A DNA stretch of 64,000 nt. Source: Escherichia coli. Lineage in GTDB: Bacteria > Pseudomonadota > Gammaproteobacteria > Enterobacterales > Enterobacteriaceae. The first letter of the stretch is position 1, and each line of letters starts with the position of its first letter. The position numbers and the translations under genes were made by a program. Positions 5,264 through 49,123 of this stretch are shown here, one piece after another. The notes under the pieces were generated by a model. That model worked only from the letters and a program-made list of their open reading frames with translations, was not told the DNA's origin and did no database searches. The stretch lies in the NCBI RefSeq assembly GCF_003334335.1, contig NZ_QOWQ01000002.1. One strand, written 5' to 3'.

Positions 5264-5468
5264 TATTACGACGCTGACCTGGCGGACTGCTGCCGTCAGG
5301 TCAATATGCTAAAAATCCCTTCATTTCTAATAACCCTATAATTAATCAACGAAATTATAATGTTTCTAAAATTAGAATATAATTTATAAACATTATTTAA
5401 ATGTTGTTACTTAAGTGTTACCGTTGATGCCGCGCAAATCTCACCTGCAATAAAGCGACTAAAAGTAA

Positions 5469-37309: not shown

Positions 37310-39124
37310 CTACTCTCCCTGTTTGCTGGCGGACGGCAGTTTGGCCGCTTTATTGACGTCATACCACCAGGTATCGATACCGAGGCTATAGATGGGGCGC
37401 ACGGCCGGCTGGGAGAATTTATCCCACCAGGCGAGACGGTCTTCCGCCATGTACCACATTGGCAGCATGTAATAATTCCACGTTAATACGCGATCCAGTG
37501 CTCGCCCCAACGGCAGTAATTTTTCTTTATTTCCCTGCGCGGCAATAATTTGGTTGATCTGCGAGTCGATAACCGGGCTTTGCACGCCGGGGGCATTATA
37601 AGTGGAATTGATATATTCCGATGACCAGGAAATCTGTAAATCGGAACTGGGCCACGGCATCGCCCGCCATACGCGCGGCATCATGTCATAGTCGCGACTG
37701 CGCATGCGGTTAGTGATTTGCGAGTTATCCACCTTGCGAATGTCCATGTTGATACCCAGCCGTTGCAGGCTGTGCTGGAACGGCAATACCCACTGACTAT
37801 TGCTGCTTGCGGGAAGCAATAATTCAAAGCTGAGTGGCTGACCCGTTGTGGCATTAACGCGTTGCTGACCCTTCAGCACCCAGCCCGCTTCGTTGAGAAG
37901 TTTGTCGGCTTTTAACAGGTTGTCACGATCGTAGCCATCGCCTTTGGATACCGGCGGCTGGTAGATTTGTGTGAAGACTTCTGACGGTAGATCTTTTTTC
38001 ATTGGTGCCAGAAGCACCAGCTCCGCGGCGTCGGGGTAATTTCTGGCCGCGTATTCGGTATTCTGAAAATAACTGTTCGTGCGACTCCAGGCATTGTAAA
38101 ACAACGCCTTGTTCATCCATTCAAAGTCAAAGGCGAGAGTGATAGCTTCCCGGACCCGGCGATCGCTGAATACCGGACGTTGGATATTAAACGCCAGCCA
38201 ACGCGTATCCTGGGCTGATTCGTTCTTTTGCTCATCTTTGATGATGTATTTTTTATCGAAATTTTTACCGGTATAACGCGTGGCCCAGTTTTTGACGTCG
38301 TTTTCCATACGCAAATCAAAGGCACCTGCTTTAAACGCTTCAAAGGCGACATTATCATCGAGGTAATAATCGTAGCGAATGGTGTCGAAATTCCAGCGTC
38401 CACGGTTTACCGGTAAGTTTGCTGCCCAGTAATCTTTCACACGGGAATAGACAATATTTTGCCCCATTTTCCAGGACGTAACGCGGTACGGACCACTGGC
38501 AAGCGGAGGCGTGGCGAGCGGGTCGCTAAGTTTGTGATCCTTCCAGTACTTTTCTGGAAATACCGGCAGCGAAAACAGACTCAGCATATCTTCTTTGCCG
38601 GGTTTAGCTAACTCAATGCGCACGGTTAACGGTGCAATGGCTTTGACGGTGGTGCCTTTGTAGACCAGACGAAATTGCGGCACGCCTTCGGTCATAAATT
38701 TTTGAAAAGTAAACTCTACATCGCGGGCAGTAATGGGCGAACCATCATGAAAACGGGCGCGCGGATTAATAGCGACCTCCACCCAGGAATAATCGTCAGC
38801 ATAGCGTGCGCTTTCAGCAATCAGCGGGTAATAACTGCCTGGTTCGTCATCGGAAGTCGTAAATAGCGTGTCGTACAGCTGCTCGGTGCGTGCGCCCGGG
38901 TTGCCGCGCAGTGCATAGCGGTTGAAATTATCGAAGGTGCCGAGGGCTGACAACGTTATCTGCCCACCTTTTGGCGCGGCGGGGTTCACATAATCAAAAT
39001 GGTTGAAATTAAACGCGTACCGGGGTTCGCCCAGCACGGCAAAGGCATAGCTTTCCTTGATAGCCTGCGCCTGCACACCAAAGGTGAACAGAGCGATAAA
39101 CAGCAGCAGTATGCGCACAATCAT
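37310..39124 (-). CDS. yejA: periplasmic substrate-binding protein YejA
   Basis: Track ORF starts with TTG at 39130; I use the ATG at 39124 ([21 protein letters not shown] signal peptide, 604 aa). Confidence 0.9.
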
Positions 39125-46192: not shown

Positions 46193-46447
46193 ATGGAATG
46201 CCGTCCGGGTTGCGGGGCGTGTTGCACTGCCCCTTCAATTTCCAGCCCTATTCCCGGTATGCCAGATGGCAAGCCCGCCAATACGCCCTGCATTCAGCTT
46301 GATGAACAGCAACGCTGTAAAATTTTCACCTCGCCACTGCGACCGAAAGTCTGTGCAGGCTTACAAGCCAGCGCTGAAATGTGCGGTAACTCGCGTCAGC
46401 AGGCCATGACCTGGCTTATCGATCTGGAAATGCTGACCGCGCCTTAA
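46193..46447 (+). CDS. yeiW: UPF0153 Cys-cluster protein YeiW
   Basis: 84-aa ORF from ATG 46193 ([18 protein letters not shown]...); track ORF 46061..46447 is over-extended. Confidence 0.8.
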
Positions 46448-47625
46448 ACATCTTTAATCCGCAGTAAGCAAAACAGAGTGGCGATAATCATCACCATCGC
46501 AAACCAGAACACAGCGTGATAATTCCAGATCTCGGCGACGATGCCCGCCACTGATCCTGCGATGATCCAGCCCACGCGCGAAGTGTTGGTATAGAGCGTG
46601 GTGGCTGAACCCGCCTGACCGGGCATCAGATCCTGAAAATAGAGCATCCCGATGCCGCCCAGAATGCCAATAAAAATAGCATTTAGCAGCTGCAAGCCCA
46701 ACAGAATGACAGGTGAATGCGCCATCAGCATTCCTGCGTAAAAACAGACGCCACCCACGGCAGCAACGCGCATTAAGAAACGCTTACCCAGACGTTTGGC
46801 GAAATATCCGGCAATCAACATCGTCGGGATTTCCAGCCCGGCGGCGGTCCCCATCATCACACCGGCCAGTTTCTCGGGAAGATGCAGTTCGTTGATAATA
46901 AATAGCGGCATGTTGATGATGTACAGGCTGTTCGAGCCCCACATCAATGTACAAATGACAAACAGCAGCAGCGTATCGCGACGGTTACGGCGCGGCGCTT
47001 CGATCGTGCCGGTCGCCAGCGGAAGCTCTTTTTGCATCGACGGTAAAAACAGCCACACCATCACACCGCAAACAATAAACGCTACCGCTGCGCTCAGATA
47101 CATTACCGTAAAGCTGAAACCCATCGCTAAGGCATAAGCCAGCGGTGGGCCAATGACCCATGCCAGTGAAACCTGAGCGCGTAAAAAAGAGCTGAACATC
47201 ACCGCCTCACGTCCGGTTTTGTCGGCATGTTCACGGGCAAGGGCAAACATTTGCGGGTTAGCGGTCGAGCCAAAGCTGCTAAGAAAGACGCCAACGAATA
47301 GCAAAACAAAGTAGTTGCGATTCCAGGCAAAAAGGGTGCAGGCCAGCACGCCTAACAGGCAGCAAAAGACAATCAGCGATTTGCGATCGCCGCGCTTATC
47401 AGAGCGCCCGGCGAGAAACTGACTTACCAGAATCCCAATGACAGCGCTGCCGGTAAAGAAGAATCCCACCATCGCCGGACGGGCATGTACTTCATCGGTA
47501 AGAAAAATACTGAGTGTCGGGGTTTGCAGAGCGCCCGCAATACCGGTGAGAAAGGCAACGATTAAAAACGCCGTCGAGGTCAGGTCAAACGATTTCGCGC
47601 TGGAGACTGCGGGGGAGTTATGCAT
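46444..47625 (-). CDS. setB: sugar efflux transporter SetB (MFS)
   Basis: 393-aa 12-[25 protein letters not shown]...; stop codon overlaps yeiW stop (TTAA at 46444-46447). Confidence 0.92.
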
Positions 47626-47890
47626 GCTGGTCGATCACTGGAAGAGGAAGACGCGGAGTTTACGCTGCTTGTCAGAAAATAAACAGACAGCGAAATCAAA
47701 AGCGCCACGAATAGTCAAAATGCCATTTCACTGTTGCTGATTGGCTGCTGACGCTGCTGAAATGAAATTGCTGATAACGGATTTTCCCATCAGCAATTAG
47801 GAAAAATGGCAAAAAATTGTGCAGCACATCAAACTTTTGCTCATAACTTTACGGCTTTCCTTGCGTGCTGAAACAGAAGTATTATGCTTT

Positions 47891-47906
47891 CTTGAAACGT
47901 TTCAGC
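47891..47906. promoter_or_regulatory. Cra (FruR) operator in fruB promoter
   Basis: cttgaaacgtttcagc, near-perfect match to the Cra palindrome GCTGAAACGTTTCAAG; a second weaker half-site gctgaaac at 47868-47875. Confidence 0.8.
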
Positions 47907-47992
47907 GCGATCTTGTCTTTAACCCTAAGCCAGGTTGGCGCTTTTTTTCTCATAGAGGCTGAATCGTTTCAATTCAGCAAGAGAGGAGAACT

Positions 47993-49123
47993 ATGTTCCA
48001 GTTATCCGTACAGGACATCCATCCGGGCGAAAAGGCCGGAGACAAAGAAGAGGCGATTCGCCAGGTCGCTGCGGCGCTGGTGCAGGCCGGTAATGTAGCA
48101 GAAGGCTACGTCAATGGCATGCTGGCGCGCGAACAGCAAACCTCAACGTTCCTCGGCAATGGTATTGCTATTCCACACGGCACTACCGACACCCGCGATC
48201 AGGTGCTGAAAACCGGCGTTCAGGTATTTCAGTTCCCGGAAGGCGTCACCTGGGGTGACGGTCAGGTAGCGTACGTGGCAATCGGTATTGCTGCCAGCTC
48301 GGATGAACATCTGGGCCTGCTACGCCAGCTGACCCACGTACTGAGCGATGATTCCGTTGCTGAACAACTGAAGTCAGCAACAACAGCAGAAGAACTTCGC
48401 GCATTACTGATGGGCGAAAAGCAGAGTGAGCAGCTGAAGCTCGACAACGAAATGCTGACACTGGATATCGTCGCCAGCGATCTGCTGACTCTTCAGGCGC
48501 TGAACGCTGCGCGTCTGAAAGAGGCGGGGGCAGTTGACGCCACTTTCGTCACCAAAGCCATCAATGAACAACCGCTGAATCTCGGACAGGGTATCTGGCT
48601 GAGCGATAGCGCCGAAGGCAATCTGCGTAGCGCGATTGCGGTAAGCCGTGCGGCAAATGCTTTTGATGTGGACGGCGAAACGGCAGCCATGCTGGTGAGT
48701 GTGGCGATGAATGACGATCAGCCCATCGCGGTTCTTAAGCGTCTCGCTGATTTATTGCTCGACAATAAAGCTGACCGCTTGCTGAAAGCGGATGCGGCAA
48801 CGTTGCTGGCGCTGCTGACCAGCGATGATGCGCCGACCGACGACGTGTTAAGCGCGGAGTTTGTGGTGCGCAATGAACACGGCCTGCATGCTCGTCCAGG
48901 TACCATGCTGGTCAATACCATTAAACAATTTAACAGTGATATTACCGTGACAAACCTTGATGGTACCGGCAAACCGGCAAACGGACGTAGTCTGATGAAA
49001 GTTGTGGCACTTGGCGTTAAGAAAGGTCATCGCCTACGCTTTACCGCCCAGGGTGCAGATGCTGAACAGGCGCTGAAAGCAATCGGCGACGCTATCGCTG
49101 CTGGTCTTGGGGAGGGCGCATAA
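47993..49123 (+). CDS. fruB: fructose PTS multiphosphoryl transfer protein FruB (IIA-M-HPr-like FPr)
   Basis: 376-aa [27 protein letters not shown]... Confidence 0.95.

Follow-up and report, generated by a model that had tools for sequence, protein, structure and literature searches.

A conserved array of short GCTGA boxes upstream of the fruBKA promoter in Enterobacteriaceae and its relation to a palindrome in Escherichia coli

Results

The setB-fruB control region was analyzed within a 64,000-nucleotide stretch of Escherichia coli DNA (hereafter the window), whose coordinates are used below. The sugar exporter gene setB (46444-47625, minus strand) and fruB (47993-49123, plus strand), with fruK next downstream, are transcribed divergently. 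Their names and orientations, as given in a first-pass annotation of the window, were confirmed by the open reading frames and by the annotation of NC_000913.3. The 367-bp spacer between the two genes (47626-47992) shows 100% identity to E. coli K-12 MG1655, and window positions convert to NC_000913.3 as 2311488 minus the window position. The spacer is single-copy in 5414 of 5426 complete E. coli genomes. In the article ‘Epigenetics knocks on synthetic biology's door’, it serves merely as an integration site.

We compared the fruB loci of 80 species-level Enterobacteriaceae genomes which, together with K-12, gave 81 sequences. These were anchored by position on the core of the proximal Cra operator, GAAACGTTTCAGC, which is invariant in all 81. 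A column alignment (n = 73) was built from K-12 and the 72 species with an intact setB as the divergent neighbor, in which the spacer measures 330-372 bp. A homologue search with the FruB protein returned mainly Salmonella FruB, and taxa farther away were not recovered.

Two Cra operators flank the start of the fruB transcript. The operator CTTGAAACGTTTCAGC at 47891-47906, named in the first-pass annotation, was verified and corresponds to the published fruBproximal (TTCTTGAAACGTTTCAGC, 47889-47906; PMC11157272, Table 1). The annotation overlooked the second published operator, fruBdistal (GAGGCTGAATCGTTTCAA, 47955-47972; PMC11157272, Table 1), so its account of the Cra sites was correct but incomplete. 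Both operators go back to Ramseier 1993, as cited in PMC11157272 and PMC7897506, and the published Cra sites are centered at +7.5 and +73.5 from the fruB start, with no others (PMC7897506). When every 16-mer of the window was scored against the Cra consensus GCTGAAWCGWTTCAGC, these two operators were the only sites to reach 14/16. fruBdistal sits inside a dyad, GCTGAAT-N7-ATTCAGC (47958-47978), whose left arm is conserved in 81/81 and whose extended right arm is conserved in 75/81 sequences. The conservation of the outer TCAGC in 75/81 suggests that two overlapping operator registers are possible at fruBdistal.

Because the sites at +7.5 and +73.5 match the operator centers at 47898.5 and 47965.5, the transcription start can be placed at approximately 47891-47892, with TATTAT at 47880-47885 (plus strand) as the probable -10 hexamer. 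This TATTAT is specific to Escherichia. Most other genera (L006-L080) read (A/G)CAAGACTTCT there, and in most of them TTGATT replaces TTGCGT, 17 bp upstream of AAGACT. The fruB core promoter appears, from this comparison, to have been rebuilt in Escherichia. A CRP-type site, TGTGC-N6-TCAAA, occupies 47818-47833, and its TGTGN stands at -81 in 76/81 sequences. A single CRP site was assigned to both fruBKA and setB by genomic SELEX and reporter assays (PMC3105977) and probably corresponds to these bases. The promoter spacer also holds a lone Cra left half-site, GCTGAAAC, which we refer to as R5 (plus strand; 34/81 sequences). It has no right half and scores 8/16 against the Cra consensus by manual count. 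The first-pass annotation had recognized this weaker half-site but placed it at 47868-47875, one base to the right of its coordinates, 47867-47874.

In the fruB leader (47904-47949), an imperfect hairpin ends in GGCGC followed by seven T's. A published Term-seq 3' end, the only one in the spacer region in the Term-seq supplement, falls exactly after this T-run (NC_000913.3 position 2263539, minus strand, equivalent to 47949), which leaves 44 nt to the fruB ATG and 6-9 nt to the distal Cra operator. A longer fold of the leader pairs the U-run with the fruB ribosome-binding site (GAGAGGAGAA). The leader hairpin could act as a terminator or attenuator, or mark a Cra roadblock site.

Upstream of the CRP site, toward setB, lies the inverted repeat reported in the first-pass annotation. 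We verified both of its arms, AATTGCTGAT (47766-47775) and ATCAGCAATT (47789-47798), which are complementary at 10/10 positions across an N13 spacer, as well as the preceding GCTGAAATGAAATT at 47756-47769. Perfect inverted repeats of at least 10 bp with a loop of 3-20 nt occur at eight loci in the 64-kb window (20 raw nested matches), compared with approximately 1.2 raw matches expected from first-order Markov simulations. Since the repeat was picked from a scan of a whole window that contains eight such repeats, it is only mildly unusual and, taken alone, a borderline outlier at most. It was rejected as a REP, BIME, or MITE repeat, as 5412-5414 E. coli genomes hold it at a single place each, and as a CRP site, as its arms do not match TGTGA-N6-TCACA.

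The arms of the palindrome are identical in five diverse E. coli strains, one of which differs at two loop bases. Among the 73 aligned sequences, the perfect palindrome was found only in K-12 and Escherichia sp. L001, and E. albertii has 8-bp arms. It is missing from three further Escherichia species and from every other sampled genus. The palindrome as such is therefore not conserved across Enterobacteriaceae but confined to two or three Escherichia species, with only a 5-6-bp core of the right arm kept elsewhere.

This core is one member of a family of short boxes, which we designated R0-R4. Boxes of the consensus (T)TGCTGA-A/C-G make up an array on the upstream side of the fruBKA promoter's CRP site: two direct copies (R1 and R2) approximately 9-10 bp apart, an optional direct copy (R3), and an inverted copy (R4). 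R1 (TGCTGACG, 47746-47753, plus strand) carries the family consensus GCTGA-A/C-G at 47747-47753 and lies at -153 from the center of the proximal operator. R2 (47756-47761, plus strand) reads GCTGAA, part of what the first-pass annotation gave as ‘gctgaaatgaaatt’, and stands at -144 in 74/81 sequences. R3 is the GCTGA at 47770-47774 (plus strand) in the left palindrome arm, an interval with a column conservation of 20-60%. A forward box occurs there, at about -130 from the operator, in 45/81 sequences. R4, the sole inverted copy (minus strand), is the TCAGCA at 47790-47795 that forms the conserved core of the right arm. It stands at -111 from the proximal operator center in 69/81 sequences, and its reverse complement tends to GCTGA-A/C-G-C. 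The R3-R4 spacing is usually 12-17 nt (range 3-21 nt). An extra box, R0, lies within TTGCTGATT (47736-47740, plus strand) and is restricted to Escherichia (8/81 sequences).

Box conservation clearly exceeds that of the surroundings. Each of the G, C, T, G, and A of R1 is kept in 66-73 of the 73 species; in R2 the per-position counts are 65-72/73, with GCTGAA intact in 65/73, and in R4 they are 60-72/73 for TCAGCA and 69-72/73 for its T, C, A, G, and C. The GCTGA of R1, R2, and R4 corresponds to 1.4-2.0 bits per position, versus 0.0-0.5 bits in the flanking columns (73 species). Box positions are fixed relative to the proximal Cra operator core (81 sequences) and to the CRP site. In Klebsiella and Raoultella, R4 lies 20 bp nearer the CRP site than in other genera, visible as an alignment gap of approximately 20 columns; by our reckoning, this shift equals about two helical turns. 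GCTGA/TCAGC words number five in 60 bp (47731-47795) and nine in 250 bp, both maxima for the window, whose background is 5 per kb. Elsewhere in the spacer, the word is conserved only in R5 and in the arms of both Cra operators; a few scattered copies are lineage-specific. A second GCTGA cluster in the window, at 37814-37888 inside a 606-aa open reading frame, is probably due to chance.

The 8-mer TTGCTGAT is common to R0, R3, and R4 in Escherichia and accounts for the perfect 10-bp repeat of E. coli. The alignment indicates that the palindrome is two opposed copies, R3 and R4, of a short family-wide box and not a unit of its own, and that the perfect repeat is a lineage-specific by-product of the box array. 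R1 and R2 also form a two-copy tandem 9-mer, GCTGCTGAC GCTGCTGAA (47743-47761). In E. coli E89 (L086), an 18-bp expansion adds two extra copies of the 9-mer GCTGCTGAC, and in E. coli 1002W03 (L085), an 11-bp deletion takes out R0. This expansion and this deletion suggest that natural variation in box number is tolerated.

Beyond these genera, a taxon whose FruB is 72% identical (L087/L090) and whose neighbor is an MFS transporter has boxes at the R1 and R2 positions and no inverted copy; it also carries a direct repeat of the full 8-nt Cra half-site, GCTGAAACGTGCTGAAAC. In a taxon with FruB at 51% identity, two TCAGC words stand 12 bp apart, approximately 200 bp upstream of fruB. No boxes precede fruB in two AT-rich, more distant relatives.

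In seven species without an adjacent setB, R1, R2, R4, the CRP site, and both Cra operators are all present at fruB. Four of these loci share one other divergent gene, one has another divergent gene, and Siccibacter L066 has no divergent gene but a same-strand gene that stops approximately 25 bp before R1. Four setB-less species (L055, L057, L074, and L078) possess a symmetric array, GCTGA-N5-GCTGA-N19-TCAGC-N5-TCAGC. The retention of the boxes in the seven species argues that the array is part of the fruBKA control region and not of that of setB; as judged from these loci, it goes with fruBKA, whichever gene is the neighbor. Conservation above the flanks, fixed position, and independence of the neighboring gene, as expected of a conserved cis-regulatory protein-binding box, were thus all found for the array.

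The spacer has other conserved segments. Just upstream of the setB ATG, the block CTGTTTATTTTCTGACAAGCAGCGTAAACTCCGCGTC (47650-47686, minus strand) is near-invariant in the 73 species. A small hairpin (GCGG/CCGC) presenting CGUAAACU may form there, and the stem shows some compensatory changes, such as AGGCG...CGCCT in Franconibacter; alternatively, the block may contain a TAAACT -10 element. A further conserved block, AAATCAAAATGGCATTTCA, lies within 47695-47730 (K-12: GCC), with a second ATCAAAA approximately 18 bp upstream, and its CATTTCA part is kept in several setB-less species. One word of this block is similar to the YpdB motif GGCATTTCAT. That motif requires two repeats, and the conserved GGCATTTCA block, present as a single copy without a second repeat, was rejected as a YpdB site. 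A 10-bp perfect complement between 47698-47707 and 47936-47945 (AAAAGCGCCA and TGGCGCTTTT, 228 nt apart) is probably a chance occurrence.

We assessed the boxes and the palindrome as Cra sites. The first-pass annotation had proposed the palindrome as a secondary Cra site, and its geometry speaks against a canonical one: the cores span 25 bp (47770-47794) instead of 16 and have no central CG, and the best 16-mer reaches 11/16. The 16-mers at the boxes and the palindrome scored 11/16 (47756), 6/16 (47770), and 8/16 (47779), the last two counted by hand; a score of 11/16 is at background level, being reached by 53 other sites in the 64-kb window. Nor is the dyad conserved as a whole, in contrast to the Cra operator core (81/81). 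Published Cra footprints cover only +7.5 and +73.5, with none at the palindrome (PMC7897506). The proposed likeness of GCTGAAATGAAATT to a Cra half-site held in part: its GCTGAA carries the outer half-site bases and is deeply conserved, but the 16-mer scores only 11/16. As both the right arm and this GCTGAA carry outer half-site bases, there is room for a non-canonical link to Cra. The conservation pattern of the boxes is the reverse of that of the operators. The operators fix the center, GAAWCGWTTC, and vary in the outer GC (the left arm of the proximal operator reads CTTGAAAC or CTCGAAAC), whereas the boxes fix GCTGA, have A or C at position 6, and drift in the subsequent bases.

Other DNA-binding proteins were also considered. 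To our knowledge, no E. coli regulator motif matches the box. The sigma-28 -10 element is GCCGATAA; GCTGATAA at 47770-47777 resembles it, but no -35 element accompanies it, and a sigma-28 promoter was rejected. The conserved positions did not match the motifs of sigma-54, sigma-E, the PhoB box, UhpA (CCTGRR), the KdgR and ArgR half-sites, IHF, or Fur. The published FlhDC SELEX box sequence is located inside setB, and a weak sigma-32 SELEX peak lies within the setB-fruB spacer. For CyuR, a motif scan in the literature predicted a site, GGAAAAATGGCAAAAAATTGTGC (47800-47822), that abuts the right arm without overlapping it and overlaps the CRP site; the stretch 47799-47812 is poorly conserved across species.

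Neither an intrinsic terminator nor a structured RNA was recognized in the palindrome. A promoter and terminator scan of 47500-48100 returned nothing, and a permissive Rfam search gave two chance matches only, far under the gathering scores. Inspection of the alignment revealed no consistent pattern of covariation between positions 6-7 of R1/R2 and R4. The Cappable-seq and SMRT-Cappable-seq supplements have no entry near 22635xx-22638xx, and neither a setB transcription start nor a transcript spanning the palindrome was found there. In the Citrobacter freundii complex (L008, L015, L016, L018, and L029), the segment aligned to 47768-47805 forms a stem, GCTGACGC/GCGTCAGC, with a loop of 6-7 nt. 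It is followed by the tail AATTTTTT, which reads AGTTTTTT in L008 and only AATTT in L029. This stem resembles an intrinsic terminator aimed at fruB on the plus strand.

Discussion

The proximal and distal Cra operators of fruB are already known, and the conserved, fruB-linked box array is modestly new. The boxes would be protein-contact sites on DNA, and protein recognition is their most likely role, judging by the alignments. We favor Cra as the binder because the box is the outer part of its half-site, GCTGAAnC, and suggest, with somewhat less than even confidence, that the boxes are low-affinity auxiliary Cra half-site contacts. Cra would bind such isolated half-sites weakly, raising its local occupancy. 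Alternatively, higher-order Cra or Cra-FruK complexes would bridge the boxes to the operators at +7.5 and +73.5, beside CRP, in a mode akin to auxiliary lac operators or CytR/CRP half-site arrays. The array accompanies the primary target operon of Cra. Several sequence features are consistent with Cra binding: conserved GCTGA copies are otherwise limited to R5 and the operator arms, R2 keeps the second A of GCTGAA in most species, the complement of R4 is like a half-site, and the L087/L090 relative has the full half-site as a direct repeat. Atomic force microscopy has revealed Cra/FruK assemblies exceeding one dimer on fruB promoter DNA, and looping between the operators has been proposed (PMC11157272). 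Against Cra, the protein is described as a dimer (PMC11157272), both published footprint sites lie downstream of the transcription start, and the boxes have neither the central CG nor the adjacent second half-site that LacI-family dimers use. The reversed conservation pattern and the missing array at fruB in the two distant AT-rich relatives likewise count against Cra.

The boxes may instead be operators of a different protein that acts on fruBKA together with CRP, a possibility that we hold more tentatively. Such a protein may be an oligomer that touches one helix face at 5-8-bp repeats in direct and inverted orientation, and the likeness to the Cra half-site would then reflect coincidence or competition with Cra. 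The base preferences point in this direction: the invariant GCTGA includes the GC, which contributes little information to the Cra ChIP-exo motif ctgaAtCGaTtcag, either A or C fills position 6, G is favored at position 7, and the central CG is absent. So does the geometry, in that the box centers are approximately in helical phase (spacings of 9-11 and approximately 32 bp), and the two-fold symmetric array of the four setB-less species would fit a dimer of dimers. The box region is also outside the published Cra footprints. However, a different protein would leave the coincidence of a Cra half-site at the primary target operon of Cra unexplained, and the searchable literature gives nothing specific at the boxes, the FlhDC and CyuR sites falling elsewhere. 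Stated more broadly, the boxes would provide fruBKA with an extra input, either a new factor beside CRP or Cra half-sites used in a CytR-like manner, possibly bridged by FruK; we consider this specific proposal rather doubtful.

The remaining readings concern the palindrome itself. Its interpretation as a setB operator, raised in the first-pass annotation, or as a conventional secondary Cra operator is largely refuted, and we regard it as highly improbable. The palindrome does lie 141-173 bp upstream of the setB start codon, inside a shared control region, and according to the literature, the setB promoter is CRP-dependent, and FlhDC and CyuR/cysteine affect the setB mRNA. Yet the palindrome is restricted to part of Escherichia, the seven species without setB next to fruB keep the boxes there together with the CRP site and the two Cra operators, the geometry and consensus score are unsuited to a Cra operator, and publications give just two Cra sites at fruB. 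It is also very unlikely that the inverted repeat acts through its structure, as an RNA hairpin (a terminator, insulator, or 5'-UTR element) or as a cruciform in the DNA that separates the divergent promoters. As RNA, the E. coli repeat has a folding energy of -13.4 kcal/mol on the plus strand and -13.6 kcal/mol on the minus strand (z of approximately -3.7), the R1-R4 segment has a median folding z of approximately -1.9 over 81 species, no arm base differs among the five E. coli strains, one of which has changes at two loop bases, and in the Citrobacter freundii complex R3 and R4 become a GC-rich 8-bp stem with a tail that gives it the look of a plus-strand terminator. Set against these observations, no terminator was predicted, no Rfam family was matched, and no known transcript was found across the palindrome. 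The E. coli stem is not followed by a U-run, R3 is absent in about half of the species, and the predicted partner of R4 switches among R1, R2, and R3 by species, across spacers of 3-21 nt. The complementarity of the flanks is explained by both arms following the extended box TGCTGA-A/C-G-C, and the core is invariant, not covarying. The changing partner of R4 and the absence of R1/R2-R4 covariation in the alignment argue for sequence-specific recognition over base pairing.

fruBKA is the founding Cra target and serves as a standard model in work on flux sensing and the design of biosensors, and the current picture of its control comprises a single CRP site and two operators, both located past the transcription start. 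Near-invariant boxes 100-150 bp upstream, linked to fruB throughout the family, point to an additional input that we did not find described in the searchable literature. If they do provide such an input, the classic two-operator picture of fruBKA control is incomplete. Were Cra to bind the boxes, they would offer a specific DNA target for the Cra-FruK complexes, looped or of higher order, recently seen by atomic force microscopy; were another protein to bind them, a well-studied operon would gain one more regulator. The reading of the palindrome is corrected by these results: it is a lineage-specific by-product of the box array and no setB operator.

The closest known system is the pair of E. 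coli fruBKA Cra operators in the same control region, of whose half-sites the GCTGA(A) of the boxes is the outer part. The operators are 16-bp dyads with a central CG, score 14/16, and lie downstream of the transcription start, whereas the boxes, each 5-8 bp long, stand isolated 98-145 bp upstream of the start, with background scores, in direct and inverted orientation and with gaps of 9-32 bp. Weak extra sites for LacI-family proteins near CRP, as in the lac O2/O3 operators and the CytR arrays, could similarly loop or cooperate with CRP. The two lac sites are full pseudo-operators, LacI being tetrameric; CytR recognizes TTGCA-type octamers and accepts direct or inverted short repeats with variable spacing. 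We know of no demonstration that Cra binds half-sites in a CytR-like or looping mode. With intrinsic terminators and REP hairpins, and with the other seven repeats of the window, the palindrome shares a perfect 10-bp stem. Unlike such terminators and hairpins, it is AT-rich and single-copy, has no U-run and no conserved pairing partner, and lies between divergent promoters.

Three FruR operators, O1-O3, are found in the fruR-fruB region of Vibrio cholerae (PMC7897506), where the FruR/Cra-type elements at a fruB promoter likewise exceed two. The Vibrio sites are full palindromes that are bound with nanomolar affinity and have been footprinted, whereas the R boxes of E. coli are half-sites known from sequence and lie upstream of the CRP site. 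[quoted passage not shown]
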